Positions 16,147 to 30,735 are shown, counted from the first letter of the stretch. The stretch: DNA of 64,000 bases from Burkholderiaceae bacterium (GCA_963666295.1 OY762707.1:570726-634725); one strand, 5' to 3'. Notes: a model not told the origin generated them from the letters alone. Numbers and translations: made by a program.

Positions 16147-16210
16147 GAAGAATGGACATTTGCATAAAGTTAGCCACTTCCTCGTGCGCTCATTGACTGC
16201 AACTCGGTCA

Positions 16211-17836
16211 GACTGTGTGAAAACACATTGATCGTGAAGCGCGAAGTGCTTGGTCCAGTCAGATTCAGCAGAAATTATAGGTCAGGATTATGAAAAAAAG
16301 CGGCCATCATGCCGCCATGGCCTCCATTAGTCTGGAAACTCCCATGATTTTCATGACTCGCTTCATGTTATAGGCCAAAACGTGCAAACTCATCTCAGTT
16401 CCTGCACCTTCTAGCCGCCTGGTTAGAAAGTGATTTGCTCCCATCCACTCTTTTATGGTGCCGAAGGGGTGTTCAACGGTGCGTTGCCTAATACGCATAA
16501 GCCCCGGATTCAGGTCGAGCCGCCTTTGCATCGCCTCAAGGGTTGATTCGTGGTCATAACGACTAACGCGACGATTTTTGCTGGTCGTGCATTTGTCGCG
16601 AATTTCGCAACTGGGGCACTCAGAACTCCAGTATTTATGAATTAATCCGCCACGTTCCTCCGTGGAGAACCGCCAAATCAACCGTTTGCCAGCAGGGCAT
16701 TTGTACTCACCAGCATTTGCATCGAAGATGAAGTCTTCCTTGTCAAAGCGCCCGTCAGCTTTCGCGCTGGATGTCGTCGACTTGGAAACAAGAGGCGTAA
16801 TTCCGTTTTGTTCACAGGCGACGATCTCTTCACCGTTGAAGTAACCGCGATCTGCAATAGCGTGCAAATCATTGGCTGCCATGGCAACCTTGGCTTGCAT
16901 TGCCATCTTGGATAACTGTCGACGGTCGCTGCCACTATTGGTAACTTCATGAGCCACTATCAGGTGGTGGGTTGTATCGACCGCAGTTTGAACGTTGTAA
17001 CCCACCAGGCCTCGACTTGTACTGGTGGCCATGGCGCGAGCGTCTGGATCAGTCAGGGAAATCTGTTTCCCTGGCACCTCTTCCAGATGTTCCTGAATCT
17101 GTTTGAACTTCTCCATCTGCGCCTTCATGGTCTTGATCTTCTCATTGAGGCGAGAGGTTCTTGCTTCGGCAATATCAGACTCTTGGCGATCTGCGGTATC
17201 GAGTTCACCCATGTAACGATCAATGCACTGGTCAATTTGCGCAAGGCGCTTGGCAACCTTGCCTCGCGTGAAATTGCGGTTATGCGCATTAACAGCTCTG
17301 AACTTGCAGCCATCGATTGCCACGACTGCGTTCGCAAACAAGCCGATTTCGCGGCAGAGAAACACAAACTGTCGGCACGCATTGCGAATTCCCGCTCCGT
17401 TATTCTTGCGAAAATCTGCAATTGTCTTGAAGTCAGGTGCCAGCCGATTAACCAGCCACATCAGTTCAAGATTGCGCTGTGCTTCGCGCTCAAGACGTCG
17501 CGTGGAATGGACACGATTTAGGTATCCGTAGATGTATATCTTCAGCAGTACCGATGGATGATAGGATGGCCGTCCCGTTTGCGCGGGGTTTACTCCGTCA
17601 AAGCCAAGTGACGCCAGATCGAGTGAATCAACAAATGCGTCTACTGCACGTACAGGATTGTCTTCAGTGACGAAATCATCAATTGATTCCGGAAGCAAAG
17701 TGACCTGACTACGATCTGCACCTTCTACAAATCTTTTCATGCCGCCTCCTGATAATAGCTACCACTATTATCCTAGAAGGATAGGCTCATCACACTCCAT
17801 TTTCACCTGTTTAAAACAGCGTTTTCACACAGCCAC
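16211..17836 (-). mobile_element. IS1182-family (IS5-like) insertion sequence, copy 1
   Basis: 1626 bp. Terminal IR core is CTGTGTGAAAAC at both ends. Flanked by the 6-bp direct repeat CGGTCA (16205-16210 and 17837-17842). The ends I compared are identical to copy 2. Boundaries +/-2 bp. Confidence 0.85.
16307..17740 (-). CDS. IS1182-family DDE transposase
   Basis: 477 aa. N-terminal MKRFVEGADRSQVTLLPESIDDFVTEDNPVR is typical for IS1182/IS5-like transposases. Protein is identical to the 28975..30408 product. Confidence 0.9.
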   Translation of the reverse strand: MKRFVEGADRSQVTLLPESIDDFVTEDNPVRAVDAFVDSLDLASLGFDGVNPAQTGRPSYHPSVLLKIYIYGYLNRVHSTRRLEREAQRNLELMWLVNRLAPDFKTIADFRKNNGAGIRNACRQFVFLCREIGLFANAVVAIDGCKFRAVNAHNRNFTRGKVAKRLAQIDQCIDRYMGELDTADRQESDIAEARTSRLNEKIKTMKAQMEKFKQIQEHLEEVPGKQISLTDPDARAMATSTSRGLVGYNVQTAVDTTHHLIVAHEVTNSGSDRRQLSKMAMQAKVAMAANDLHAIADRGYFNGEEIVACEQNGITPLVSKSTTSSAKADGRFDKEDFIFDANAGEYKCPAGKRLIWRFSTEERGGLIHKYWSSECPSCEIRDKCTTSKNRRVSRYDHESTLEAMQRRLDLNPGLMRIRQRTVEHPFGTIKEWMGANHFLTRRLEGAGTEMSLHVLAYNMKRVMKIMGVSRLMEAMAA

Positions 17837-18129
17837 CGGTCAAAGCAGCCTTTGGACTTGGCTACCGTGACCGGCAAAGTCCGCCCCAAAGCTGTCACAC
17901 ATGCAGAGTAGCACTAAAATCGCTCTTAGATTACGGTCGCCCAGAAGATCCTCAATTCAGACAATGTTCAAAAGAAACCCGAGCCAAAAACGAGCAAACA
18001 CCCAAAAATTAAGAAAACAGCTGATGCCTTAACTGCTGGTATGAATGCGTATTCAAATTCAATATCGAACAAACGGGAAACCAAAGACACCCCCTGTGCC
18101 TAGACAGCTTGGCTTACATTGCTGTGAAT

Positions 18130-18158
18130 AAAAAAAAGCCCACCCCGAAGGGTGGGCA
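18130..18158 (-). terminator. rho-independent terminator closing the minus-strand cassette
   Basis: On the minus strand, GCCCACCC-TTCG-GGGTGGGC followed by TTTTTTTT, 70 nt downstream of the 531-aa gene stop. Confidence 0.65.
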
Positions 18159-18227: not shown

Positions 18228-19823
18228 TCAACCCTCTTTCTGCTTCAGTTGGCCAACACTAATATCTAGACGAACAAGATGTCTTTCAATTTCGGCAGTC
18301 ATTTTGTCTGCGATGTCGATGATGTTGTCCGCACCTGATCGGATAGTTCTTGACTTGGTCCTGATGTCGTCCAGCCGGCTTACTTGTTTTTCAATCTGGC
18401 GAATGCTTTCTTCCATTTCATCAGTATTGACCGGCAATTCTTCTGCTTCTCGCACGCGAACTGAAATCGCTTTGGCGATTGAAATCGCACTTTGCAAAAC
18501 AATGTCAGTACTTTCGTCTTCCGCATCCCAGATAATCATGATGTCACGCCCGAATCGACTGATAGTCTCTAGATTGGCTGGAGCAGTACGCTTAGAGTGA
18601 ACGAATATGCCAATTTCTGCGAGACGATTCTTGCGTGCACTTTCGATTTCATCGAGACTTGCTTTAATGTTATAGGTCTGGTCTTCCTTGAATTCGACGA
18701 CAATTCTCGCTCCCGCTGCCGCACTATCTGGACTCAGAGTGATCACACTGTCGCCAACCTTTGCTCTTCCCACTGCCCCCGTTGTATGAGCCACAAATTC
18801 TGCAAAGTCTCCTGCTCTCATTGACATTCGTTCTATGACCTCAAAACCCTGTCTTTCAAAGTCCAAGCCATGGAGCGTTGAACGGGCAGCCTCTTCCTTG
18901 CGGATATTCATGGCATCCAGAGTTCGTCTAACCTCTTCTCGAAATGAACGATTGTCTTCTCCCTGCTTTTCAAGCACGCTGATCATTTCCCTGCGCAATC
19001 TCGCAAGAGCCGAGTTCTCTGCATCTAGCGAGAACTCCGTGCTTAGGTTCTTCTGTGTTTGTTCAACCTGACGTACCAAACGACTGAGTGCAGAGTCGTC
19101 GCTGTCTAGCGAGAACTCCTCAATCACTGTGCCAATTCTTTTGGAAAGACTTTCGGTTAAGTTTCCGTGCTTTTCAGTCAGTTCATTCAGCAAGCGCGTG
19201 AGAGCGCCCTCCTTATTATCGAGAGAAAACTCGCGCAACACTGCATCTGAACGCGTCTGGACGACTGTCTCAACACGCTCGCGCAACCCCTTTAGCAACT
19301 GGTTATCTTCTGTCGGCAGCAGAAGCTGGAGAAGTGGGCTGCCACTTCCTATGTGGTCCGTTAAGGCTTCATTCAATGTCTGGCGCGTTTGCCCGATCTG
19401 ATCGCGCATTACTTTTTCCAGTTCACCGTCGTTCTTGACTAGGCGATCAACACGCTCTGTAAAGCGTCCATCTTTTGGATCAAAATATTCCTTGAGCGTG
19501 GCAGAGATGCTTGATTCAGTCACCTGTTGAAAATGTCCAAGCTTTGCTGCCAATTCACTTAAAAGTCGCTCGCCTTCATTGCGAACTTTTTCGCTATCCA
19601 CAACACCCTGGGCCTGGCGCAAAGAAAGCACTCCGATGCGCAGGGCTTGCCGGATAAATTCGTCCCGTTGTCTACCTTGTGGGTAACTGATTAGTGCTGC
19701 CGCACTTTCAGGGTCAGTAATTTCGAGTTCAACCCTAATGCCGGACGTGGGTTCGGCATCATGATTTTGGGAGTTTTCAATGATCGTAGGAGCTACTGTG
19801 TGAGTCGTTTGCATACTGGACAA
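18228..19823 (-). CDS. repeat-rich coiled-coil protein with C-terminal PD-(D/E)xK-like core (RmuC/DUF2130-like architecture)
   Basis: 531 aa. Strong SD (AGGAGG) before the ATG. Three EFSLD-x3-4-SAL(T/S/A)RL repeats (aa 198-275) and a degenerate fourth at aa 111-129. Candidate nuclease core is GD(357)SV...IVVE(377)FK(379). Confidence 0.6.
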   Translation of the reverse strand: MSSMQTTHTVAPTIIENSQNHDAEPTSGIRVELEITDPESAAALISYPQGRQRDEFIRQALRIGVLSLRQAQGVVDSEKVRNEGERLLSELAAKLGHFQQVTESSISATLKEYFDPKDGRFTERVDRLVKNDGELEKVMRDQIGQTRQTLNEALTDHIGSGSPLLQLLLPTEDNQLLKGLRERVETVVQTRSDAVLREFSLDNKEGALTRLLNELTEKHGNLTESLSKRIGTVIEEFSLDSDDSALSRLVRQVEQTQKNLSTEFSLDAENSALARLRREMISVLEKQGEDNRSFREEVRRTLDAMNIRKEEAARSTLHGLDFERQGFEVIERMSMRAGDFAEFVAHTTGAVGRAKVGDSVITLSPDSAAAGARIVVEFKEDQTYNIKASLDEIESARKNRLAEIGIFVHSKRTAPANLETISRFGRDIMIIWDAEDESTDIVLQSAISIAKAISVRVREAEELPVNTDEMEESIRQIEKQVSRLDDIRTKSRTIRSGADNIIDIADKMTAEIERHLVRLDISVGQLKQKEG

Positions 19824-19873
19824 CCTCCTTGAAATGAGCGGGTTCGCTCAACAGGGTAGATTGTGCAGAAGCT

Positions 19874-19896
19874 TGTGGCTCATATGGTGAGCCACT
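19874..19896. promoter_or_regulatory. 23-bp dyad operator, site B (TGTGGCTCATATGGTGAGCCACT)
   Basis: Lies in the 79-nt gap between the WYL gene stop and the 531-aa gene start. Aligns with sites A and C, sharing the invariant half-site GTGAGCCACT. Confidence 0.6.
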
Positions 19897-19902
19897 AAAA
19901 AT

Positions 19903-20889
19903 TTAGCTGTAAAGAGAAGCGGCTTTCACAAGCCTCTCCTTGACGGACTCACGTAGTGTTGCAGGCCCCAACACTTCCACATCGGGGCCAAAGCGCAAAA
20001 TTTCGAGCATTAGCTCCCTCGGATCGCTATATGGAATCTCCAGCAAATAGCTGCCATCATCAAGTTCAGTGGTTTTCTGTTCAGGATGCCACTGCTCAGC
20101 TCTAACCCATCTGGCTTGAACAGGGGAAAACTTAAGCTTGGCCCATTCACGATCCTTGCCTGAAAAGATGCCAAAATCCGGCCCAAGCATTTCATCCACT
20201 TTTTTAGCTGCTACGCGTTTAGCTGACTTACTAATTTGATGCGCGCTTTCGATAGCGTCTAGTGCGAAAATCCTCATGGCATCAGCTTGGTGGCACCAAG
20301 CAAATAAATACCAGTTTTCCCGATAGTGAACGAGTCGCTGAGGCGAAACGATCCTTTCGCTTCGCTTGTTGCTGCTTCTGGTGAAATACTGCATGGAGAG
20401 TCGAGTCTGCTTAACCGCAGCTTGTGCAACCGTCTCAAAATATTGTGAGTTGATGCGCTTGCTTGCAGAAGCAAGGATGCGTACACGTGATCGAATGTCT
20501 GCTGGATCATCGTTAGCTGCGCTCATTGCCACAGTAATCCGTGCAATCAGTGGTTGTAGATGCTCAGTCAGCAAGCCAGGACCGATATGCCTGGCAAGTT
20601 CGTCAATCATCAGAAGTGCGTAGATTTCTGAGGCGGTAAACCATGTCCTTGGCAACCCCAGTTTGCCTGACGACCACCCTTTGTCTGTCAGCACATATCC
20701 TCTTGGCGATTCGGAATCTCCTCGTTGCCAATCAATTGGAACCTGCATCTGATCTCGCAATAAGGCAAGATCACGTCTAAATTGTGTTCGCGAAATTTCC
20801 AGTTCGGCAAGGAGAGTATCCCGTGGTACGGGATACTTGCTTGACTCCAAAATTGAAATGAGATTGTTTAGGCGAACGAATTGGCTCAT
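19903..20889 (-). CDS. HTH-WYL-domain transcriptional regulator (BrxR/CapW-like)
   Basis: 328 aa. N-terminal wHTH (RDTLLAELEISRTQFRRDLALLRDQ). WYL-domain signature SPQRLVHYRENWYLFAWCHQADAMRIFALDAI. Start overlaps the upstream stop (TAATG). Confidence 0.8.
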   Translation of the reverse strand: MSQFVRLNNLISILESSKYPVPRDTLLAELEISRTQFRRDLALLRDQMQVPIDWQRGDSESPRGYVLTDKGWSSGKLGLPRTWFTASEIYALLMIDELARHIGPGLLTEHLQPLIARITVAMSAANDDPADIRSRVRILASASKRINSQYFETVAQAAVKQTRLSMQYFTRSSNKRSERIVSPQRLVHYRENWYLFAWCHQADAMRIFALDAIESAHQISKSAKRVAAKKVDEMLGPDFGIFSGKDREWAKLKFSPVQARWVRAEQWHPEQKTTELDDGSYLLEIPYSDPRELMLEILRFGPDVEVLGPATLRESVKERLVKAASLYS

Positions 20890-21806
20890 TATTTTTTAGG
20901 CACTCTGTAGTCGAATTCGCGTGGATCAAGATCTTCATCGTTTGGCGCCCACCCCTCTAGGACGAAGACTTCGCCACCTGATGGTTCCCACGTATCGCCG
21001 TTCCGCTGCAACAAGATATTCCGGACAATAAATAGATCGGAACGCCATGCGTTTTCCCTTGCATCTTTTACCTCATTGCGCGTCAGAATCACCGTATCAG
21101 CATTGCCAGTTGATCCTTTTACTTCAACGTGAACAACTAATTCCTTTTTCTGGCAAAGCAGATCGAAGGGTTTACCGTATTCTTCAACGGAGAATTCCTG
21201 ATGAAGATAGTACTCCTTTGCTTTACTTACTGCGTAATTTTCGGTAATTCGCTTTTTTTCTGGATCATCTTGTATACCAGCGCTTCCAGCAGCAACGTTA
21301 CCTGACGACTCCTCCTGAATCTCACTATTTTGAGGAAGATCTAGATAGTCCCTTAATTTGTCTGCCGATGCTTTTGTCAGTTGAAATGGGATGCGAAATG
21401 CTTGGCGATCAATCCCCCCACTCTTATCTAGGTTTGGTTTTTTTCGTTCGCCCTTAGATGTAATCAGATCAAGGTTTTTGGCCACCTCAAGGTCGACCAG
21501 CTTTGCTGCTCTGAATTTATCTATGGCTTGCTTCTCTGCAATGAAGTACAAGTCTTTGTTAATAATATTGGTTCTACCCAATAATTTTTCGGCCTCAACT
21601 TTTAAAACTGGCCCGTCACCTACGACCAGCCTTCCTCCAATATAGAGATTGCCTTTCTTTACTGTAATAACAAATACTTCATCTCCTTTTACAAAGGTCG
21701 AGAACGGCCGCTTATTCTCGCCTGCAATATAGTCGACAGCATCGTCATCAGATTTTGCTCGTTGATCCCAAGTATCGTTATTCCATAGAAATGTATAAGA
21801 AGCCAT
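20889..21806 (-). CDS. hypothetical protein; C-terminal DUF3883-like PD-(D/E)xK module, N-terminal beta-rich domain
   Basis: 305 aa. The C-terminus, KPFD(215)LLCQKKELVVHVE(228)VK(230)GSTG...LTRNEVKDA...DLFIV, matches the D...ExK...NE...ly.V pattern I recall for DUF3883. The N-terminal domain is unassigned. Confidence 0.55.
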   Translation of the reverse strand: MASYTFLWNNDTWDQRAKSDDDAVDYIAGENKRPFSTFVKGDEVFVITVKKGNLYIGGRLVVGDGPVLKVEAEKLLGRTNIINKDLYFIAEKQAIDKFRAAKLVDLEVAKNLDLITSKGERKKPNLDKSGGIDRQAFRIPFQLTKASADKLRDYLDLPQNSEIQEESSGNVAAGSAGIQDDPEKKRITENYAVSKAKEYYLHQEFSVEEYGKPFDLLCQKKELVVHVEVKGSTGNADTVILTRNEVKDARENAWRSDLFIVRNILLQRNGDTWEPSGGEVFVLEGWAPNDEDLDPREFDYRVPKK

Positions 21807-21807
21807 C

Positions 21808-24800
21808 TTAATCCTTTGACTGTTTAGAAATTATGGAGAAATGATTTAATGTGTTAATCAAGTGAATGTCTTCAGGTGTGTCGGCTCTGGCATCAAGCAA
21901 CCTTTCTGTTCCTAAAACCAAAGACATACATCGAGCCCTTGATACAGCGACATTGAATCTATTCTTGCTAAATAAAAACCCAAGGTTACGAGGCATCAGT
22001 GAATCATTAGATGTAGTCATTGAAACAATCACGACCTGCGCCTCCTGTCCCTGAAATTTGTCGACAGTTCCTACGCGTGCTCCCTTAGGCAAGGTGCGTT
22101 TAAGCAGGTTCACCTGCATGTTGTATGGTGCAACGATGAGAATGTCTTCTAAAGTCATAGGATGGACAACACCTTTTCCATCACGATAGCTCTGGGTAAG
22201 CAAGTTATCTACTAGTTCGCTAACATCTGCCGCTTCTTCTTCGCTTCGCTGTGAGCACGCATCGTGATCGACCGGGACATAGCGAATTCCCGTTGGTTTC
22301 AGCGCCGGGTGTGCACCATCGTTTAGAACTAAAGCTTGTTTAAATGTCGATTCGTCTGACTTCAGCCGCGAGTCATATATGGCACCAGAAATAAACTGGC
22401 AGACGTCCGGATGCATTCGGTACGTGGTCGCAAGGAAAATTCCGCGATCAGGTGAAATCGTTGCTTCGCCATCAAGCAGATAATCAAGAGCCGACTCACC
22501 ACTTCGACCAGGATGAACTCCTTGGATTGGCTGCCCTAACTGCATCTGGTCACCTAACAAAACAAGGTTACGAGAACACATCCCCATCGCTATGGTGTTT
22601 GCAAGCGATACCTGTCCAGCTTCATCAATGAACAAGTAATCGTATTCACCCCTAAAGTCTCCCCTTGCCAAAAGCCATGCCGTTCCAGCTAGCAATTGAG
22701 GCGGTGGGTCTGCTTTGGCTATTGACTGACTGCTTCCCCAGTTCTCTATAAAATCGCTTTCAACGTGATGCTCATCTGTCGACACCTTCTTGATGCCGTA
22801 GTAGCTGGCACCTTTCTCTTTCATTCGCTTGTCGACAGCGCTTAGAAGGTTGTTGATCGCTTTATGGCTATTTGAAGATACGGCCACGCGCTTGCCAGAC
22901 TTCAGAAGTTCGGCAATCAAGTGCGATCCCGTATAGGTTTTGCCTGTTCCCGGAGGACCTTGGATGAACAGGTAGGTATTCTGCATCTTTTCTACAGCAG
23001 AAATTGTTTGTGCAAGCGGATCACCATCGAGGTCAACAATGGGTTCTCCTGAATTGATTCCTTCAATATCAGGCGCTTTTCTCGTGAGGTAATCCAATAC
23101 AGCTTTGTATTGCCCACTGCCGGCAATTAGGGAATCTGCAAAATCAAATAGTGCATCTTGCATTACCGTTGAATTTATCGGTGCACCTGTTGAGATTGAA
23201 AATGACCCTGACTCGTCCCCCGAATCAGTCCGTATTTCCAAGGTGACGGTGCAGTTATCCTCATCAATATCTACTACGTTCACATCCTTCAGAGTATCCA
23301 GGCGCTTCGCATACCCACCGGCCTTCACCTTAAAATCCTGCTCCGGATAGTGATAACGAAATACCTCGAAACGCTTGCCAGACCCGACATACTCAGGGGA
23401 ATGAAGGCCAGCAATAACTTCCGGATCTTCAATCAACTCTTCAAACTCACCATCTTGGCGTTCGAAGATATTCCACCATGCTGGTTTGGCAGCACGCCGG
23501 TAAAAATCCAATAGTGAGTCGACCAGTTTAGCCAGTTCTTCATCAAGCCCAAGGTTGACTGGGCTAGTGATCAATTTCTCATGGTATTCCTCGAGAGTTT
23601 TTTCGTGATCAAGCGTTTTGTCGGATTTTGTCTTTGCTGGCTTTTTAGCTGCTACGGCGTCAATAATGGCTTCTGAAAACCACGACAATTCTTCCGGCCT
23701 CATCGTCAGTAGCCATTCTCGCAACTGCCATGTCGAGCGACAGTCGTCCTCGTTATACTCCCGTATGGACTCAAGCAATTCTGGATCTTGTGTTTCACGC
23801 CAGCGCTCATAAACCACGATGCTATCTCCAGCATTTGTGACCTCTGCATCCCGCTTATCGCTGTAAAAGGCCTCGACGGCTTTTATTGAATAGCTAGGCT
23901 TTGAAATGCGTAAGCCCTCACGCACTACTTTGTATAAATCTACTAAACGACTTTCACGTAATAATTGATCAACTGCTGACTCTTTGACCCCATGCAAAGT
24001 CATTAACTTCTTCAAAGCCGTATTCTCATAATGAGCGTAGTGATAGATATGCATGGCAGGATACTTCTCCCTGCGATCCATCACGAAATCCATAAATTCG
24101 ATGAAAGCTTGGCGTTCCTGCTCTCGATCATGCGCCCAGAAGGGCTTGAATACTGGCTTTCCTGCATCGAAGTAGTACACACCGAATAGATATTCCAATC
24201 CACCGTCCTGCATTGGATCGCCTTCCATATCGAAGAACAGATCACCTGCATCCGGTTTGGGGAGTCTCGCAAACCCGCGCATTTCGTCTTCGTGAACAGG
24301 CAAAAGAACTACCTTTTGCTCGCCAGTCTCACGCTCATGAACCTGGAGCTTTGCTTGTTCGCGTAATTTCGTGAGTGTCTGATCCGCCAGCTTGGGCACG
24401 TCCATGTTTTCTTGTAGTTGTGCGAGCTGAGCAACCGTTTTGATGTCAGCCTGCTCCAACCTTGCGATCTGCTGGCGTGTGATATTGGCTACCGCTGACA
24501 AATGGTCATCTTCGATCCGTTTTGCGTCGCACCTTTCTTGCCAATGACAAAGTGAGCAATGGTCGCAAGGTACTGGATACGGTGGAGTGCCATCCGGGTA
24601 GGTTCCCAAAAATTCGACGAACCGGTCCAGAAGCTGCCTGTAGTAATACACGTAGTCAGCGACTCTGAAACTTTCACGCTTTCCGTTCCCCAGTTCGACA
24701 TGCATGTTTGGTGGGAGTTTTTCTGTCAGGTCAGACAACAGATCGGAATAAAAACAAAGCTGGAGAATGAATTTAGCCTTGGTCGAGCGTGCAAGCTTGG

Positions 24801-25197
24801 TATCTGCAACCTCATATTCCCATGCCTCTCCCTCATCATTACTGTCTGTGCGCAGGAGAAAATCAGCATTTCCAAGCATATTGCCGCGCTTCAAGGCGGC
24901 CTGATAGACAACCTTGGCACCGGTTTTCAGGGCGTCACTGGTTGCGCTGACACGCTGGTCAAGAGATAGTTTTTGGTCTATCTCAATGCAATCTTCGTAT
25001 TGGGTTTTTAGTTGCGCAAAAAACTCCGCTTCGTGCTCAAAGCCCTTTGCCTGAACCAGCTTGGATTGCTCATCATCCTCGGCTTTTTCCATTGGTGAGT
25101 CGAGGTGGAGGCGATCAAGCCATGTCCTGTGTGGGCATTCAGCGAAAAAGGTCAGGTCGCTTGCGGAAAACAGAATCTGGTTATTTATTTTTTGCAA
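21808..25197 (-). CDS. Cas4/RecB-like Fe-S nuclease + PolB-like (RNase_H_2) 3'-5' exonuclease + Upf1/DNA2-like SF1B helicase fusion (TM0106-family-like)
   Basis: 1129 aa. TTG start 6 nt after GGAGGTGA. Nuclease: C21, D112 (NADFLL), D132-T-K134, QLCFY, then C211-x2-C-x2-C-x5-C. Exonuclease: DLFFDMEGDP and EYNEDDC. Helicase: GPPGTGKT (K753), FIDEAGQ, LLGDQMQL, TTYRMHP, DKFQGQEAQVVIVS, FNVAVSRAR. Confidence 0.85.
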   Translation of the reverse strand: MQKINNQILFSASDLTFFAECPHRTWLDRLHLDSPMEKAEDDEQSKLVQAKGFEHEAEFFAQLKTQYEDCIEIDQKLSLDQRVSATSDALKTGAKVVYQAALKRGNMLGNADFLLRTDSNDEGEAWEYEVADTKLARSTKAKFILQLCFYSDLLSDLTEKLPPNMHVELGNGKRESFRVADYVYYYRQLLDRFVEFLGTYPDGTPPYPVPCDHCSLCHWQERCDAKRIEDDHLSAVANITRQQIARLEQADIKTVAQLAQLQENMDVPKLADQTLTKLREQAKLQVHERETGEQKVVLLPVHEDEMRGFARLPKPDAGDLFFDMEGDPMQDGGLEYLFGVYYFDAGKPVFKPFWAHDREQERQAFIEFMDFVMDRREKYPAMHIYHYAHYENTALKKLMTLHGVKESAVDQLLRESRLVDLYKVVREGLRISKPSYSIKAVEAFYSDKRDAEVTNAGDSIVVYERWRETQDPELLESIREYNEDDCRSTWQLREWLLTMRPEELSWFSEAIIDAVAAKKPAKTKSDKTLDHEKTLEEYHEKLITSPVNLGLDEELAKLVDSLLDFYRRAAKPAWWNIFERQDGEFEELIEDPEVIAGLHSPEYVGSGKRFEVFRYHYPEQDFKVKAGGYAKRLDTLKDVNVVDIDEDNCTVTLEIRTDSGDESGSFSISTGAPINSTVMQDALFDFADSLIAGSGQYKAVLDYLTRKAPDIEGINSGEPIVDLDGDPLAQTISAVEKMQNTYLFIQGPPGTGKTYTGSHLIAELLKSGKRVAVSSNSHKAINNLLSAVDKRMKEKGASYYGIKKVSTDEHHVESDFIENWGSSQSIAKADPPPQLLAGTAWLLARGDFRGEYDYLFIDEAGQVSLANTIAMGMCSRNLVLLGDQMQLGQPIQGVHPGRSGESALDYLLDGEATISPDRGIFLATTYRMHPDVCQFISGAIYDSRLKSDESTFKQALVLNDGAHPALKPTGIRYVPVDHDACSQRSEEEAADVSELVDNLLTQSYRDGKGVVHPMTLEDILIVAPYNMQVNLLKRTLPKGARVGTVDKFQGQEAQVVIVSMTTSNDSLMPRNLGFLFSKNRFNVAVSRARCMSLVLGTERLLDARADTPEDIHLINTLNHFSIISKQSKD

Positions 25198-25263
25198 AGA
25201 TCACCTCCAAAGGTTTGGGAAGTATAGCGCTTATTTCTGCTAAAAACGGAACTTATCACCATA

Positions 25264-25286
25264 AGTGGTTCACATAGTGAGCCACT
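25264..25286. promoter_or_regulatory. 23-bp dyad operator, site A (AGTGGTTCACATAGTGAGCCACT)
   Basis: 67 nt upstream of the helicase-fusion start, in the divergent intergenic region. Nearly perfect 10-3-10 inverted repeat. Confidence 0.6.
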
Positions 25287-25315
25287 AAAAAAACAATTTC
25301 CAAAAATATATATTT

Positions 25316-25338
25316 AGAGGCTCATTCCGTGAGCCACT
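25316..25338. promoter_or_regulatory. 23-bp dyad operator, site C (AGAGGCTCATTCCGTGAGCCACT)
   Basis: Same intergenic region, 48 nt upstream of the ATG at 25387. Shares GTGAGCCACT and the GGCTCAT left arm with site B. Confidence 0.5.
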
Positions 25339-25386
25339 TACTTATTTATAGTCACATCATGTGAACAAAATATGGAGGTGAATTCA

Positions 25387-25665
25387 ATGAGCCAATTAAC
25401 CCAGCATGCCATGACCCGTATGCAGCAGCGCGGCATAAAAGAGCTAACGCTTCAACACCTGTTGCAGCATGGCGCAAAGACTCATGATGGCAGGGGATGC
25501 CAAATTGTTTATTTCAACAAGCAATCGCGAAAACGCCTACAAAAAAGCTTTTGCAATGAGGCATTCAAGCAACTTGAGAAGCAAATGGATGCTTATGCCG
25601 TAATTTCTGAGTTTGGCGATGTTGTCACAGTAGGCCACCGAACCAAGCGTATCAACCGTTACTAA
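25387..25665 (+). CDS. DUF4258-like small protein (putative toxin-type)
   Basis: LTQHAMTRMQQRGIKELTLQHLLQHG fits the DUF4258 pattern (HA..RM..RgI). GGAGGTG lies 6 nt before ATG 25387. The ORF-track start at 25372 sits inside that SD. Confidence 0.5.
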   Translation: MSQLTQHAMTRMQQRGIKELTLQHLLQHGAKTHDGRGCQIVYFNKQSRKRLQKSFCNEAFKQLEKQMDAYAVISEFGDVVTVGHRTKRINRY

Positions 25666-25674
25666 GGAGACTCC

Positions 25675-26190
25675 ATGGCGCTATTACTAGAAGGAATGAC
25701 TCTGGTATTTGAAAATGAAACACTTGAAGAGATGCACCCACTTGGCATCAAGGGATTCATATCGGAATGGAACAACGGGTCTTTCTGTACGGACGGCACG
25801 ATATCTAAATTGTCCTTTTTTGAATTTCAGGACGGATTTTGCGTACTTGCAGCCATGAAGGGTATGGGGTTGGCCATATCCACACGATACGCAGCCGATG
25901 TAGCTGTGTTTATGCATGATGGCAGCCCATGGTTACCCTGCTTGTGGCTAGAAACTGAAAAACACGTCGAAAATTACATGATGTGCTGGCATGTAACAAA
26001 CAAAGGGAGCAAAGCATTGGCTCCAGCATATTTCAAGAGAGGTGGCACATTAGCGCGCTTCCAAGGACTAACCATGGACGAGATAAACGATCGTATTTCT
26101 AGGGCGGGCGTCGAAAATGGATGCAGCATTTTCAAAGACGAAATATCTGGTCGAATTCTGTACGGTCCGAATCAACTCTGCAGACATTAA
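25675..26190 (+). CDS. hypothetical protein (possible partner of the DUF4258-like gene)
   Basis: 171 aa. AGGAG SD. Starts 10 nt after the upstream stop. No family recognised. Confidence 0.5.
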   Translation: MALLLEGMTLVFENETLEEMHPLGIKGFISEWNNGSFCTDGTISKLSFFEFQDGFCVLAAMKGMGLAISTRYAADVAVFMHDGSPWLPCLWLETEKHVENYMMCWHVTNKGSKALAPAYFKRGGTLARFQGLTMDEINDRISRAGVENGCSIFKDEISGRILYGPNQLCRH

Positions 26191-27485: not shown

Positions 27486-28115
27486 TTGCTAGAAGAAGCT
27501 GAAGAAGCATCTGTCATTTATTCAATACAATACGGTCTGATTCTGACAGTTCCACGTGGTGATTACAGTATTGAAAGTTTGCGTTCTTTACTAAGGGCAT
27601 TTGTACTGCTTGGAAGGCCAAAACAAGTAGTTGGCTTAGATCTGGCAGGCCATGAAAGTCGCGAGAACATATCTGAACTGGTCCCACATTTTATGAGGGC
27701 GAAGAAGGAATTTGGGCTTGGGGTTACTATTCACGCAGGCGAAACGGGCATAATTGAAAATGTCACACAAGCCGTTTTGGGCTTTGGCGCAGATCGAATT
27801 GGGCACGGAACAGCGGCCGCAAAATGTGTTGAAACTATGGCGCTGCTTCGAGAGCACGATGTTTGTCTGGAAGTTTGTCCAATAAGTAACTATTTGACCG
27901 GCGCAGTACCCAATGGAGAGGCACATCCATTGAATGCATTTGTTGAGCATGAAGTGCCGTTCGTTATTTGCTCAGACAACCCTGCTCGTCATGCGCGGGG
28001 ACTCAATGCGGACTATTACGAGTTTATTCAAGAAACGGGGCGGTTTGATTTGCTGGATGATATGTACTCAAAGCAGTCGAAGTACTCTTTTCTCGATTTC
28101 AGCAGAATAAACTAA
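27486..28115 (+). pseudogene. adenosine/AMP-deaminase-family fragment lacking the N-terminal ~115 residues
   Basis: Contains LDLAGHE, TIHAGE, ADRIGHG, CPISN and SDNP motifs of the adenosine deaminase superfamily. The frame opens only at 27447 and the HxH zinc motif is missing. Upstream DNA has stops in that frame. Confidence 0.55.
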
Positions 28116-28150: not shown

Positions 28151-28741
28151 TCAAGCCCACCTGTCAAAAATTCTGTCGGTCTGTTTGTCGAGTTCAAACG
28201 AGCGCGATGTAAATCCAACGAGACTGTCGCCAAATGCCTCAATTGCAAGAAGCAGAATTTCGCGTGCAAGGGATGTTGAAATTGAATTCTTTGGTGAACA
28301 AAGCGCCCCTTTCTGCTGCTCAACATAAAGCGCCGTTTCCCGAAGAGCGATCATCTCCCCCCGTTTTGCTAGATCAATAAGCTCATTCATCCGGGCTTCA
28401 CCGATCGCCACCTGTAGCCTACTTCCCATAGCAACCGTTGGGCCGAGAGCCAAACGGTGTTTTGTCCCGTGTTTGTATAGTGGATCTTTCGATCTTTTAA
28501 CTGGATTCACCCCGCTTCTGAACGTGCCCACATGGACTTTAGAGGTTTCTTCAAGTGCAGTAATGCTGAGAAAGAGCGCAGTTGCGTGCGAACCCATAGC
28601 TAGAAGTGTTGACGCATCCTCAAGAAGTTGAACTATGTGCTCACAGGCTTCGTCAAATTCCTCTGTTGTGTTGCATAACTTCTCTCCGACAGCGGCAGCG
28701 TCTTTAACGGCAAGCCACCACTCTATGGACGAATTGATCAT
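28151..28741 (-). CDS. AbiV-like (HEPN-type) abortive-infection protein candidate
   Basis: 196 aa. LLEDASTLLAMGSHATALFLSITALEETSKV matches the AbiV-family pattern (A..L...g.y..A.fL.i.A.EE.gK). The size matches AbiV. Confidence 0.5.
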   Translation of the reverse strand: MINSSIEWWLAVKDAAAVGEKLCNTTEEFDEACEHIVQLLEDASTLLAMGSHATALFLSITALEETSKVHVGTFRSGVNPVKRSKDPLYKHGTKHRLALGPTVAMGSRLQVAIGEARMNELIDLAKRGEMIALRETALYVEQQKGALCSPKNSISTSLAREILLLAIEAFGDSLVGFTSRSFELDKQTDRIFDRWA

Positions 28742-28878
28742 GTTGAGGAATTAAATTGTTATGGTCGAAAGTTTGCATATTAGCATTGTCGAATGAGAAG
28801 AAAATCCAGATCTGAACGACAGCTTCATTGCTGGGTTAAGGCGGTGATGGTTGCCAAGGTAAAGGTCTGCTTTGGCCG

Positions 28879-30504
28879 GTGGCTGTGTGAAAACGCTGTT
28901 TTAAACAGGTGAAAATGGAGTGTGATGAGCCTATCCTTCTAGGATAATAGTGGTAGCTATTATCAGGAGGCGGCATGAAAAGATTTGTAGAAGGTGCAGA
29001 TCGTAGTCAGGTCACTTTGCTTCCGGAATCAATTGATGATTTCGTCACTGAAGACAATCCTGTACGTGCAGTAGACGCATTTGTTGATTCACTCGATCTG
29101 GCGTCACTTGGCTTTGACGGAGTAAACCCCGCGCAAACGGGACGGCCATCCTATCATCCATCGGTACTGCTGAAGATATACATCTACGGATACCTAAATC
29201 GTGTCCATTCCACGCGACGTCTTGAGCGCGAAGCACAGCGCAATCTTGAACTGATGTGGCTGGTTAATCGGCTGGCACCTGACTTCAAGACAATTGCAGA
29301 TTTTCGCAAGAATAACGGAGCGGGAATTCGCAATGCGTGCCGACAGTTTGTGTTTCTCTGCCGCGAAATCGGCTTGTTTGCGAACGCAGTCGTGGCAATC
29401 GATGGCTGCAAGTTCAGAGCTGTTAATGCGCATAACCGCAATTTCACGCGAGGCAAGGTTGCCAAGCGCCTTGCGCAAATTGACCAGTGCATTGATCGTT
29501 ACATGGGTGAACTCGATACCGCAGATCGCCAAGAGTCTGATATTGCCGAAGCAAGAACCTCTCGCCTCAATGAGAAGATCAAGACCATGAAGGCGCAGAT
29601 GGAGAAGTTCAAACAGATTCAGGAACATCTGGAAGAGGTGCCAGGGAAACAGATTTCCCTGACTGATCCAGACGCTCGCGCCATGGCCACCAGTACAAGT
29701 CGAGGCCTGGTGGGTTACAACGTTCAAACTGCGGTCGATACAACCCACCACCTGATAGTGGCTCATGAAGTTACCAATAGTGGCAGCGACCGTCGACAGT
29801 TATCCAAGATGGCAATGCAAGCCAAGGTTGCCATGGCAGCCAATGATTTGCACGCTATTGCAGATCGCGGTTACTTCAACGGTGAAGAGATCGTCGCCTG
29901 TGAACAAAACGGAATTACGCCTCTTGTTTCCAAGTCGACGACATCCAGCGCGAAAGCTGACGGGCGCTTTGACAAGGAAGACTTCATCTTCGATGCAAAT
30001 GCTGGTGAGTACAAATGCCCTGCTGGCAAACGGTTGATTTGGCGGTTCTCCACGGAGGAACGTGGCGGATTAATTCATAAATACTGGAGTTCTGAGTGCC
30101 CCAGTTGCGAAATTCGCGACAAATGCACGACCAGCAAAAATCGTCGCGTTAGTCGTTATGACCACGAATCAACCCTTGAGGCGATGCAAAGGCGGCTCGA
30201 CCTGAATCCGGGGCTTATGCGTATTAGGCAACGCACCGTTGAACACCCCTTCGGCACCATAAAAGAGTGGATGGGAGCAAATCACTTTCTAACCAGGCGG
30301 CTAGAAGGTGCAGGAACTGAGATGAGTTTGCACGTTTTGGCCTATAACATGAAGCGAGTCATGAAAATCATGGGAGTTTCCAGACTAATGGAGGCCATGG
30401 CGGCATGATGGCCGCTTTTTTTCATAATCCTGACCTATAATTTCTGCTGAATCTGACTGGACCAAGCACTTCGCGCTTCACGATCAATGTGTTTTCACAC
30501 AGTC
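28879..30504 (+). mobile_element. IS1182-family insertion sequence, copy 2 (inverted relative to copy 1)
   Basis: 1626 bp, same IR core. Flanked by the 6-bp direct repeat TGGCCG (28873-28878 and 30505-30510). Confidence 0.85.
28975..30408 (+). CDS. IS1182-family DDE transposase
   Basis: 477 aa, identical to the 16307..17740 product. Confidence 0.9.
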   Translation: MKRFVEGADRSQVTLLPESIDDFVTEDNPVRAVDAFVDSLDLASLGFDGVNPAQTGRPSYHPSVLLKIYIYGYLNRVHSTRRLEREAQRNLELMWLVNRLAPDFKTIADFRKNNGAGIRNACRQFVFLCREIGLFANAVVAIDGCKFRAVNAHNRNFTRGKVAKRLAQIDQCIDRYMGELDTADRQESDIAEARTSRLNEKIKTMKAQMEKFKQIQEHLEEVPGKQISLTDPDARAMATSTSRGLVGYNVQTAVDTTHHLIVAHEVTNSGSDRRQLSKMAMQAKVAMAANDLHAIADRGYFNGEEIVACEQNGITPLVSKSTTSSAKADGRFDKEDFIFDANAGEYKCPAGKRLIWRFSTEERGGLIHKYWSSECPSCEIRDKCTTSKNRRVSRYDHESTLEAMQRRLDLNPGLMRIRQRTVEHPFGTIKEWMGANHFLTRRLEGAGTEMSLHVLAYNMKRVMKIMGVSRLMEAMAA

Positions 30505-30605
30505 TGGCCGAGCAGCTGTCGTAAGTCGTATGGCAGGTTTTAGATCATTTCAGATTTATAGTGCGGGTATACAGCGCCACCAAGCTCTCCCATTTTGAAA
30601 AACTA

Positions 30606-30634: not shown

Positions 30635-30650
30635 TATGGTTTCATCTTAC

Positions 30651-30735
30651 TAGCAACTTATGCCCGCAAAACTAGCAGCTTATGGGTGCAAACTTGCAGC
30701 TTATGCCCGCACTCACATATGCCCGCACTCACACA
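30651..30735. repeat. imperfect short tandem repeats in the nrdJ 3' UTR
   Basis: GCTTATGCCCGCA-type units at 30657, 30677 (variant GCTTATGGGTGCA) and 30699. ATGCCCGCACTCACA is duplicated in tandem at 30703-30717 and 30719-30733. Confidence 0.5.

Follow-up and report, generated by a model that had tools for sequence, protein, structure and literature searches.

For bacterial immune loci, and for DNA-damage responses outside SOS, regulators with a WYL domain are emerging as the main transcriptional switches. Those characterised at defence loci, BrxR and CapW, are repressors that act on palindromes in promoters (PMC9122601, PMC11662680). Among the activators, DriD has a palindromic site overlapping the −35 position of promoters that lack a −35 element, and the distance from this site to the −10 is identical in all regulated promoters (PMC13004042). 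SiwR is a homodimeric WYL activator with a palindrome between −35 and −10 (PMC10693628), and PafBC contacts positions −23 to −28 in promoters without a −35 element (PMC8635444).

Gene content of the WYL cassette

The cassette lies in a 64-kb stretch of DNA (the window) and its features are collected in Table 1. The surrounding segment is IS-bounded and defence-island-like, with AbiV in the vicinity and with NOV_C, HNH and DUF2130 as variable genes. The WYL regulator is the only DNA-binding protein of the cassette predicted by Pfam. Homologues of the nuclease-helicase fusion (50–71% identity) adjoin the WYL gene in related loci (L numbers below), and PADLOC gave only helicase-domain matches for it, with no whole-system match. 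The ends of the NOV_C gene abut or overlap both neighbouring genes; in other loci this gene is missing from the slot or is positioned after the WYL gene.

The protein encoded downstream of the WYL gene had no match in Pfam, NCBIfam, PADLOC or PHROGs, and belongs to a large uncharacterised family. Its start is most likely ATG 19814, because this codon has AAGGAGG 9 nt upstream and is also the start of the gene call. In the divergent pair, the Pfam match of the 92-aa protein to DUF4258 is weak (22 bits, cut-off 25), and homologues with 45–60% identity occupy the same divergent position. Homologues of the 171-aa protein (34–47% identity) follow the DUF4258-like gene in L003, L005–L007, L009, L060, L065 and L068.

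Table 1. Sites, predicted promoter elements and genes of the cassette (window coordinates).
Feature	Position	Strand	Description
Site A	25264–25286	−	reads AGTGGTTCACATAGTGAGCCACT on +, AGTGGCTCACTATGTGAACCACT on −
Site B	19874–19896	−	reads TGTGGCTCATATGGTGAGCCACT on +, AGTGGCTCACCATATGAGCCACA on −
Site C	25316–25338	+	reads AGAGGCTCATTCCGTGAGCCACT
Predicted −10 of site A	25250–25255	−	TAAGTT; 8 nt after dyad; position conserved in alignments
Predicted −10 of site B	19860–19865	−	CACAAT; 8 nt after dyad
Predicted −10 of site C	25347–25352	+	TATAGT; 8 nt after dyad
Nuclease-helicase fusion	21808–25197	−	1129 aa; TM0106-family RecB/Cas4-like nuclease, RNase_H_2 and SF1 helicase (AAA_11/AAA_12, IGHMBP2-like); Pfam; NCBIfam TIGR03491, 5e-103
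NOV_C protein	20889–21806	−	305 aa; C-terminal NOV_C (DUF3883) domain; Pfam; variable slot between helicase and WYL
WYL regulator	19903–20889	−	328 aa; wHTH-WYL-WCX transcription factor; Pfam HTH_11, WYL, WCX; last gene of site-A operon
528-aa protein	18228–19814	−	unknown function; gene call; 531 aa from TTG ORF start 19823
DUF4258-like protein	25387–25665	+	92 aa; BECR/RelE-superfamily toxin-like; first gene of divergent pair; gene call
171-aa protein	25675–26190	+	no family match (Pfam, PADLOC, NCBIfam); second gene of divergent pair
Intrinsic terminator	18138–18157	−	strong; GCCCACCC TTCG GGGTGGGC then T8; closes unit after 528-aa gene; terminator scan

Three conserved 23-bp dyads

When re-read from the window, the three sites agreed exactly with the sequences given in an earlier sequence-only reading, and comparing each left half with the reverse complement of its right half gives 1, 2 and 2 mismatches, within the 1–2 that it had claimed. 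Comparison of related loci gives the dyad the consensus RGTGGCTCAY-N3-RTGAGCCACY (10-3-10, 23 bp). In the 64-kb window, exact GTGAGCCACT is confined to sites A, B and C, with one copy each; a search that tolerates one mismatch gives 13 matches where 3.4 are expected, and 13 was reached in none of 100 shuffles. The full dyad pattern also matches only at these three sites (0.17 matches expected in the window), and an independent repeat search of the window recovers them as family D1. The three palindromes are confirmed as genuine.

Some details of the sequence-only reading depend on the frame of reference. The distances of 67 and 51 nt that it gave from sites A and B to the downstream genes hold for the ORF starts it used, but the distance of site B becomes 60 nt with ATG 19814. 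Similarly, the AAAAA it described after sites A and B is present on the plus strand, but relative to transcription it is a T-tract upstream of the dyad. Site B lies 7 nt past the WYL stop codon.

Placement of the dyads relative to predicted −10 hexamers

Every dyad appears to sit in a promoter, as judged by the hexamer predicted at its downstream side. The site A promoter has a TG at 25258–25257, giving an extended −10 (TGnTAnnnT), and the TGn extension is found in 8 of 11 orthologous helicase promoters. At the same offset, the orthologous hexamers of site C are CAGAAT, CACACT, CACAAT, TAGACT and CAAACT, and those of site B are GAGAAT, CAGAAT, GACAAT, TACTAT, CACAAT, AACAAT, TAGAAT, CATAAT and TACAAT. 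Two of the three promoter classes combine weak −10 hexamers (CACAAT, GACAAT) with the lack of both TGn and −35 elements.

In an orientation-blind test, the pattern nAnnnT was found at an offset of exactly 8 in 47 of 50 distinct dyads, compared with 3–11 of 50 at other offsets. Among 30 oriented sites, A is present at −11 in 28 and T at −7 in 29, while the 8-nt spacer carries near-zero information. This assignment of nAnnnT as the −10 signature is a statistical prediction. Exceptions are an offset of 7 nt in L013, L086 and L087, and of 15 nt upstream of the WYL gene of L087. The distance from dyad to dyad varies from 34 to 73 bp while the offset to the −10 stays fixed.

Since the dyad ends 8 nt before the hexamer, it spans −43 to −21, with its centre at −32, counted from a conserved nAnAnT hexamer that is predicted rather than mapped. 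The oriented promoter alignment contains no −35 hexamer, positions −35 to −30 reading A-Y-T-C-Y-R, and TGAGCCAC, the promoter-proximal half-site, occupies −29 to −22. On the predicted −10, this is the DriD-type architecture: the site overlaps the −35 position of a promoter without a −35 element, at a constant distance from the −10 (offset 8 in the 47 dyads above). It is not the PafBC −26 type, in which a heterodimer recognises a short non-palindromic motif at −23 to −28; here the dyad is symmetric over 23 bp and only one WYL gene is present.

Distribution among related loci

The sequence-only reading had proposed a check of whether the dyads keep their positions in homologous loci. The same three positions are kept in about 30 genome and metagenome loci, with two dyads in the helicase/DUF4258 divergent region and one 8–18 bp after the WYL stop codon. 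The carriers are Dechloromonas, Rhodocyclaceae, Burkholderiaceae, Comamonas, Rhodoferax, Craterilacuibacter and Verrucomicrobiaceae loci together with 27 metagenome loci. The cassettes are found in Betaproteobacteria of several genera and in one MAG each of Gammaproteobacteria and Verrucomicrobiaceae. Cultured carriers include Craterilacuibacter sinensis B2N2-7, Rhodoferax sp. U2-2l and Aromatoleum petrolei.

Site-A-type dyads are present in L002–L007, L011, L013, L060, L065, L068, L071, L073 and L079. The distal, site-C-type dyad has the same position and orientation in nine genome loci and is also found in metagenome loci. Site-B-type dyads occur in L002–L007, L009, L011, L056, L057, L059, L060, L062 and L065–L068, and are degenerate in L070–L072. 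Unlike the dyads, the flanking intergenic DNA cannot be aligned between loci. Part of this positional conservation could be inherited, as related loci share ancestry.

The dyad also stays with the WYL gene where no helicase is present, in a minimal locus, in an Mks-like cassette and in a 5′-nucleotidase cassette. L077 and L078, the latter being the minimal locus, have a WYL protein of 46% identity, no helicase, and a dyad directly upstream of the WYL gene. A perfect dyad accompanies the WYL gene and Mks-like cassette of L084, and three dyads surround a WYL gene of 47% identity in L087. Homologues of the 528-aa protein again follow a dyad promoter in L057, L084, L085 and L087, and have no dyad in loci without the WYL gene (L082, L083, L088). 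In L085 and L086, no WYL gene lies within 9 kb of the dyad promoter; the genome with L085 carries a WYL gene in L084.

The sequence-only reading had tied the helicase operon, the 531-aa gene and possibly the 25387–26190 pair to one HTH-WYL regulator. Strong comparative support for this wiring, with the WYL protein as the putative binder, comes from the three-site layout across genera, the placement of every site in a (predicted) promoter, the dyad travelling with WYL homologues that have no helicase, the lack of a second predicted DNA-binding protein in the cassette, and a motif that is not REP-like in the window or the related loci.

Relationship of the regulator to described WYL proteins

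The regulator has the domain order HTH_11 (25.7 bits, cut-off 25), WYL (77 bits) and WCX (70 bits), which places it in the wHTH-WYL-WCX group. A first search returned more than 4000 homologues; within these the 328-aa proteins form a tight family, and the HTH region is highly conserved. A sequence search of the PDB matched PafBC (4e-19) and PafC (7e-15) more strongly than BrxR (5e-7) and CapW (5e-6). The BrxR and CapW matches span only about 80 residues of the WYL domain, and by sequence the regulator is not a member of the BrxR/CapW group. Foldseek, run with an AlphaFold model of moderate quality (pLDDT 75), gave 3e-16 for PafBC-RNAP and 1e-15 for DriD, against 1.5e-10 for CapW and 4e-10 for BrxR. 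By both sequence and fold, the activators PafBC and DriD are thus better matches to the regulator than the repressors BrxR and CapW, although PafBC and DriD share only about 20% identity with it.

Alternative explanations

It is highly improbable that the palindromes act as nucleic-acid structures or repeats, such as RNA hairpins, terminators, attenuators (especially site B), cruciforms or REP-like elements. Each dyad can fold (−11 to −15 kcal/mol, z-scores −2 to −3), site C is flagged by a lenient terminator scan, and the WYL 3′ region contains site B. However, none of the hairpins is followed by a U-run in the direction of transcription, the T-run preceding it instead; sites A and C are upstream of the predicted transcription starts; and the dyads have no Rfam match. 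Deviations from the dyad consensus are one-sided in 36 cases and two-sided in 6, and this dominance of one-sided changes suggests protein recognition of each half-site, with pairing not conserved. A structural role would also leave the fixed offset to the −10 hexamer unexplained. The sequence-only reading had regarded a genome-wide, REP-like distribution of the motif as evidence against its proposal, but within the window and the related loci the motif is not REP-like, with no further copies in the 64 kb or in the flanks of the related loci. Both a REP-like repeat and an intrinsic terminator were rejected: there are three copies in 64 kb, all in (predicted) promoters, and no U-run. A different binder, the WYL gene merely co-occurring with the dyads, is also improbable, if less so. 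It could be an antitoxin-type repressor (the 171-aa or DUF4258-like protein) or a host regulator. Palindromes in their own promoter are a frequent route of autoregulation for toxin-antitoxin-like pairs, most loci with the dyad also have the DUF4258-like gene, minimal locus L078 included, and the dyad promoters of L085 and L086 are without a nearby WYL gene. Against this, L002, L008, L077, L084 and L087 have dyads and a WYL gene but no detectable DUF4258/171-aa pair nearby, neither protein of the pair has a DNA-binding domain recognisable by Pfam or NCBIfam, and the L085 genome does hold a WYL gene, in L084. The spread of the cassettes over several betaproteobacterial genera and the Gammaproteobacteria and Verrucomicrobiaceae MAGs argues against a lineage-specific host factor.

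The main rival to activation is classical repression by the same binder. A BrxR/CapW-type repressor would sit on the dyads, occlude the −35/spacer region of the three promoters, and leave once its WYL domain binds ssDNA or another signal of infection or damage. The precedent of BrxR and CapW favours this, as do the pair of BrxR boxes within a single island, of which one precedes the downstream operon, and the defence-island-like, IS-bounded setting with AbiV. In addition, the nuclease-type genes of the cassette could be toxic if expressed without control, the extended −10 of the helicase promoters can work without a −35 and could fire without an activator, and a site spanning −43 to −21 blocks RNA polymerase, a classical repressor position. 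We nevertheless consider repression less likely than activation. For a pure repressor the distance to the −10 need not be fixed, yet it is exactly 8 nt in nearly all dyads while dyad-to-dyad distances vary. The two promoter classes without TGn and −35 are predicted to be poor promoters, with nothing to repress, and by sequence and fold the protein is nearer to PafBC and DriD. The label of repressor in the sequence-only reading is therefore not retained: the fixed 8 nt, the absent −35 and the PafBC/DriD kinship fit an activator at least as well.

Proposed control of the cassette

The explanation we favour, with slightly better than even confidence, is that the dyads are target sites of the cassette's own WYL regulator in −35-less promoters and that the regulator probably acts positively. 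The wHTH-WYL-WCX protein would bind as a homodimer, and each dyad would make up the upstream half of a promoter of the sigma-70 type, with a −10 hexamer but no −35. Site A would drive the nuclease-helicase–NOV_C–WYL operon, and the regulator would be autoregulated, as the WYL gene is the last of this operon. Site C would drive the divergent DUF4258-like/171-aa pair, and site B would be an internal promoter for the 528-aa gene. Most likely the regulator assists RNA polymerase, like DriD, SiwR and PafBC, and does not simply block the promoter. Positive control is suggested because the distance to the −10 is invariant despite a drifted 8-nt spacer and varying other intergenic distances, because the −35 is missing, and because the protein resembles PafBC and DriD most. 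The regulator probably responds to a nucleic-acid signal, e.g., ssDNA bound by its WYL domain.

More tentatively, and with less than even confidence, the unit of dyad, 8 nt and −10 may be a portable, activator-dependent plug-in promoter by which one WYL clade switches defence-type modules. This clade would span 46–100% identity and keep the same half-site. The regulator would respond to a nucleic-acid danger signal by switching on interchangeable, largely undescribed modules, namely the TM0106 nuclease-helicase core, the BECR-toxin-like pair and a swappable NOV_C/HNH/DUF2130/528-aa slot, or an Mks/Wadjet-like cassette in other genomes. It may also act in trans at a second locus of one genome (L084 and L085). 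If true, mobile immune cassettes would be under activation-based, not derepression-based, control.

The locus provides a precise operator/promoter model (consensus, position and three target promoters), in which the sign of regulation may be positive, as judged from comparative data alone. The genes it would regulate form a conserved uncharacterised cassette of a TM0106 nuclease-helicase, a DUF4258-like pair and a variable nuclease slot, which would become experimentally tractable via the WYL switch. WYL palindromes in defence islands and WYL activator sites with a locked position have both been described already, so the locus does not represent a new category.

Comparison with known WYL regulators

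BrxR and CapW, the WYL repressors of BREX, CBASS and other defence islands, resemble the present case in having a WYL regulator inside a defence-type cluster, inverted-repeat operators of similar size (10/11-5-10/11), bidirectional promoters, and more than one box per island, one of which is ahead of the operon downstream of the regulator. They differ by their weaker sequence and fold similarity and by a spacer of 5 bp, compared with 3 bp here; the BrxR box is downstream of the promoter's −10, whereas the dyads have a fixed upstream position. In Moraxellaceae, DdaA is a WYL activator that serves both DNA-damage and defence genes, those against phage included, and its palindromic motif is CGWCA-N5-TGWCG. 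It is set apart by a promoter arrangement that, according to its authors, differs from the PafBC −26 type and is typical of activators, and by a genome-wide SOS-replacing regulon, where the present system is a cassette-borne module.

PafBC and SiwR, actinobacterial WYL activators (−26 element/sigma adaptation), share the −10 without a −35, and PafBC is the best PDB sequence match. The half-site TGAGCCAC falls in the region contacted by PafB (−23 to −28), and SiwR binds as a homodimer to an imperfect palindrome between −35 and −10. In contrast, PafBC requires RNAP for DNA binding and reads a short non-palindromic motif as a heterodimer, while the full 10-3-10 palindrome here reaches −43. DriD of Caulobacter crescentus has only about 20% identity to the regulator, its box is unrelated to the half-site GTGGCTCAY-N3-RTGAGCCAC, and it governs a chromosomal DNA-damage regulon instead of a mobile, defence-island-like cassette in which the regulator ends the regulated operon. 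It is nevertheless, together with PafBC, the top fold match, and a homodimeric activator with the same wHTH-WYL-WCX domain order. Its palindrome of about 20 bp lies over the −35 position of promoters without a −35, at a constant distance from the −10, as do the dyads of this cassette relative to their predicted −10 hexamers.

Dyads and genes of the cassette

The 23-mers at sites A, B and C are identical to those of the sequence-only reading, and the dyad pattern that it proposed is matched in the 64-kb window at these three sites only (0.17 matches expected). A REP-like spread within the window was not found either, as exact copies of the half-site GTGAGCCACT are confined to A, B and C (three occurrences). 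Allowing one mismatch raises the count in the window to 13, compared with 3.4 expected; no shuffle gave as many, and an independent repeat search returned the three sites as the top direct-repeat family. The dyads are able to fold. Across 30 sites, deviations from the consensus were one-sided in 36 cases versus two-sided in 6, indicating a constraint on the sequence of each half and not on pairing between the halves. No U-run follows the dyads in the direction of transcription and an Rfam search of the cassette gave no match; together with the one-sided deviations, these results speak against a hairpin, a terminator or a REP element.

Features of the cassette and its surroundings (window positions)
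Feature	Position	Strand	Remarks
IS copy, left	16195-17873		
Strong terminator	18138-18157		end of the 528-aa gene
528-aa protein	18228-19814	-	after site B
Predicted -10, CACAAT	19860-19865	-	
Site B	19874-19896		23-bp dyad
WYL regulator	19903-20889	-	328 aa, HTH_11-WYL-WCX
NOV_C (DUF3883) domain protein	20889-21806	-	305 aa
Helicase fusion	21808-25197	-	1129 aa; TM0106-family RecB/Cas4-like nuclease (TIGR03491, 5e-103), RNase_H_2, SF1 helicase (AAA_11/AAA_12)
Sequence TATACT	25222-25227	-	resembles a -10
Predicted -10, TAAGTT	25250-25255	-	
Site A	25264-25286		23-bp dyad
Site C	25316-25338		23-bp dyad
Predicted -10, TATAGT	25347-25352	+	
DUF4258-like protein	25387-25665		92 aa, after site C; weak family match; divergent from the helicase operon
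171-aa protein	25675-26190		after the DUF4258-like gene; divergent from the helicase operon
Adenosine deaminase fragment	27486-28115		209 aa
AbiV	28151-28741		full; HEPN_AbiV
IS copy, right	28842-30520		
Tandem repeat	30649-30711		three copies

The helicase fusion, NOV_C and WYL genes abut or overlap, so that WYL closes the operon beginning at site A. Homologues whose coding sequence opens with ATG-CAA at the corresponding point support the TTG start of the helicase fusion at 25197. The mechanically assigned ORFs of the gene downstream of site B (531 aa) and of the DUF4258-like gene are probably too long, their opening codons containing the Shine-Dalgarno sequence. The former gene most likely begins at ATG 19814 and not at 19823, with AAGGAGG 9 nt upstream and in agreement with the gene call; the latter probably begins at 25387 and not at 25372, since GGAGGTG lies within the opening of the longer ORF, and here too the gene call agrees.

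Neither the 528-aa nor the 171-aa protein had a match in PHROGs, Pfam, NCBIfam or PADLOC, the regulated cassette had no whole-system match in PADLOC, and a literature search (TM0106, TIGR03491, DUF4258, DUF2130) found no published description of it. The 528-aa family has more than 1500 homologues and carries no annotation. Kinship of the 528-aa protein to DUF2130 proteins was rejected, as BLASTP and hhalign show none, and a nuclease-like 'VVEFKE' motif, seen by eye only, is not claimed. In two loci (L082, L086) the family directly follows a DUF2779 protein, in VWA-DUF2779-(528 aa) operons without WYL; the helicase fusion of the window likewise begins with a RecB/Cas4-like nuclease.

Two inverted IS copies of about 1.63-1.68 kb, each encoding a 477-aa DDE transposase (DUF772 / DDE_Tnp_1 / DDE_Tnp_1_6), flank the whole cassette. 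They are 99% identical, with mismatches at the repeat ends only, and the 10,968 bp between them hold the dyads, WYL, helicase, AbiV and neighbouring genes. This segment looks like a composite transposon; target-site duplications were not found at the IS pair. Within it, a fragment whose match to the adenosine deaminase profile is limited to the middle and C-terminal portion (124-298 of 330 positions) adjoins a full AbiV gene (PADLOC 6.6e-65), a defence-island context. Just outside the right IS copy are three tandem copies of a 20-nt unit, ACTAGCAACTTATGCCCGCA, 80-90% identical and 21-22 nt apart.

Conservation of the dyads in related loci

Homologues of the WYL protein number more than 4000 and include a tight 328-aa family (60-72% identity); protein-guided scans gave 18 genome loci and 27 metagenome loci. 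In the conserved core, the DUF4258-like/171-aa pair is divergent to the helicase fusion, which is followed by WYL; a variable gene lies before WYL, separating it from the helicase, or behind it. The gene behind WYL encodes a NOV_C (L002, L006), HNH_2 (L003, L007, L011) or DUF2130 (L004, L005, L009) protein, a McrB-like AAA_5 protein (L010), or a member of the 528-aa family (the window, L057). By eye, the variable genes seem to share N-terminal regions (those after WYL in L002, L003, L007 and L010, 20889-21806 of the window, and 6424-7527 of L011), those of L002 and L007 both opening with MITPEIAKNIVEKIKG, while their C-terminal modules differ (NOV_C, HNH_2 or McrB-like AAA_5). Such a pattern suggests that modules have been exchanged on a shared sensor or adaptor domain. 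A Comamonas MAG locus (L009) carries a second, divergently oriented WYL paralogue (1698-2654, 43% identity) upstream of its helicase variant, and its DUF4258/171-aa pair has been relocated to the downstream side of WYL, where a dyad of its own (10472) precedes it.

On the comparison that the sequence-only reading called for, homologous loci keep the dyads at the same positions: RGTGGCTCAY-N3-RTGAGCCACY recurs although the intergenic DNA is otherwise unalignable. Two dyads occupy the helicase/DUF4258 divergent region in L002-L007, L011, L013, L060, L065, L068, L073 and L079, and the helicase variant loci L008 and L009 have a single one. Another dyad occurs once, 8-18 bp after the WYL stop codon (L002-L007, L009, L011, L056, L057, L059, L060, L062, L065-L068), and is degenerate in L070-L072. 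Within the 18 genome loci, every dyad match with two or fewer mismatches lies at a canonical position. The distance between the two dyads of the divergent region is 52 bp here and 34-73 bp across loci; this lack of conservation speaks against helical phasing of A and C as a phased pair or loop.

The exact core GTGGCTCAYNNNRTGAGCCAC (21-mer) was also found in 35 viral contigs, none of which encodes a WYL or helicase homologue; about half contain one coding motif, GTGGTGGCTCACGAGATGAGCCAC, which translates to VVAHEMSH, a HExxH protease signature, and the case inspected (L029) was unrelated. The motif by itself therefore also exists elsewhere in nature and is no diagnostic mark; its specificity lies in the combination with this promoter context and the adjacent regulator. 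A literature search for the half-site and WYL together gave nothing relevant. A different palindrome was considered and rejected for the Thiotrichaceae loci L014-L018, whose WYL homologues are distant (36-39% identity), the sole shared candidate, AATGGTTTnnnAAACCA, sitting in a conserved coding stretch.

Promoter geometry

When 30 dyads were oriented toward the gene that each precedes, the 23-mer was followed by 8 nt nearly without information and then by a hexamer with A at the second position (28/30), A at the fourth (21/30) and T at the sixth (29/30). These three positions are the hallmark of a -10 element. In an orientation-blind test, nAnnnT was present at offset 8 in 47 of 50 distinct dyads, compared with 3-11 at each other offset from 2 to 19. 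Each dyad is part of a predicted promoter with a -10 element, and the fixed offset places it over -43 to -21. Relative to the predicted -10, the promoter-proximal half-site TGAGCCAC lies at -29 to -22, and positions -35 to -30 read A-Y-T-C-Y-R, with no -35 hexamer. A generic promoter scan, which looks for a -35 as well, picked up none of the dyad promoters for that reason. Across loci, the start codon lies at varying distances from the -10, and the spacing between dyads varies too, so that indels are common around the sites but not between dyad and -10.

An extended -10 (TGnTAnnnT) is present in most helicase promoters, and the other two promoter classes have weaker hexamers (CACAAT, GACAAT, CAAACT) without TGn. 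The 3-bp centre of the dyad (e.g., 25326-25328) is non-random in the promoter orientation, with T at -33 in 22/30 and C at -32 in 19/30, and a short aTTT tract precedes the 30 oriented dyads at -47 to -44; contacts of RNAP or alpha-CTD, or bending of the DNA, may underlie both. Between the dyad promoter and the helicase start, about 25 nt before the latter, TATACT looks more like a -10. No convincing -35 goes with it, the other loci do not conserve it, and it may be a constitutive promoter particular to the window.

The WYL regulator as candidate binder

WYL is the only predicted DNA-binding protein of the cassette, and its HTH region is strongly conserved. The dyads travel with it. In two loci without the helicase (L077, L078) a dyad lies directly upstream of a WYL gene at 46% identity, and in L078 one dyad has N8 and a -10 on both sides, leading to WYL and to a divergent DUF4258-like gene. 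In L084, WYL is followed by a Mks-like cassette (DUF3584, MksE), and a perfect dyad with N8-TAATCT precedes a 528-aa homologue; in L087, three dyads around WYL (47% identity) precede a 5'-nucleotidase gene, WYL itself and a 528-aa homologue. No dyad was found at the 528-aa homologues of loci without WYL (L082, L083, L088). The dyad is thus linked to WYL and not to the helicase.

L085 and L086 have a dyad promoter and no WYL within 9 kb. L085 belongs to the same genome as L084 (GCA_041639215.1), which encodes the WYL regulator, and near-identical dyad promoters (L084 6846, L085 8846) precede DUF7281, 528-aa-homologue and helicase genes, so regulation in this genome may occur in trans, with WYL from L084 acting at L085.

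Activation or repression, and comparison with known WYL regulators

The sequence-only reading connected the first and last genes of the cassette to the WYL protein as one regulon under a repressor. The dyads are real and this main interpretation is supported, with WYL still the predicted binder; what probably changes is the sign. WYL-type factors comprise two groups, activators and repressors (PMC11662680). Among solved structures, those closest in sequence are PafBC (4e-19) and PafC (7e-15), by a wide margin over BrxR (5e-7), CapW (5e-6) and DriD (2e-5). Fold comparison of the AlphaFold model (pLDDT 75) placed PafBC bound to RNAP (3e-16) and DriD (1e-15) at the top, with CapW (1.5e-10) and BrxR (4e-10) lower. 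Kinship to PafBC and DriD, together with a DriD-like promoter signature, makes a positive, RNAP-assisting role of WYL roughly twice as likely as pure repression of the dyad promoters. The latter is the main rival reading, kept in play by the extended -10 at the helicase promoter and by the defence-like surroundings. Among known repressors, BrxR occupies an 11-5-11 repeat that lies downstream of the -10 in its promoter, and another box precedes the downstream operon (PMC9122601), and CapW leaves its palindrome on binding ssDNA (PMC11662680); by sequence, the WYL protein here is not a member of the BrxR/CapW group.

The system would be of a known kind, a WYL regulator and its operator set, to which this analysis adds a position-locked promoter model, probable positive regulation, and a WYL-plus-dyad module that is portable between differing cargo. 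Among activators, PafB contacts -23 to -28 at promoters without a -35 (PMC8635444), and the homodimeric SiwR uses an imperfect palindrome between -35 and -10 and depends on the -26 region (PMC10693628). The PafBC -26 element is not matched here, given a palindromic site and only one WYL gene. The palindromic target of DriD overlaps the -35 position, by cryo-EM and promoter alignment, in promoters that have no -35, and its distance to the -10 is identical in all regulated promoters (PMC13004042). The dyad promoters have the same signature on their predicted -10 elements (target over the -35 position, no -35, fixed -10 distance), and the DriD-type architecture is matched in every feature testable in silico.
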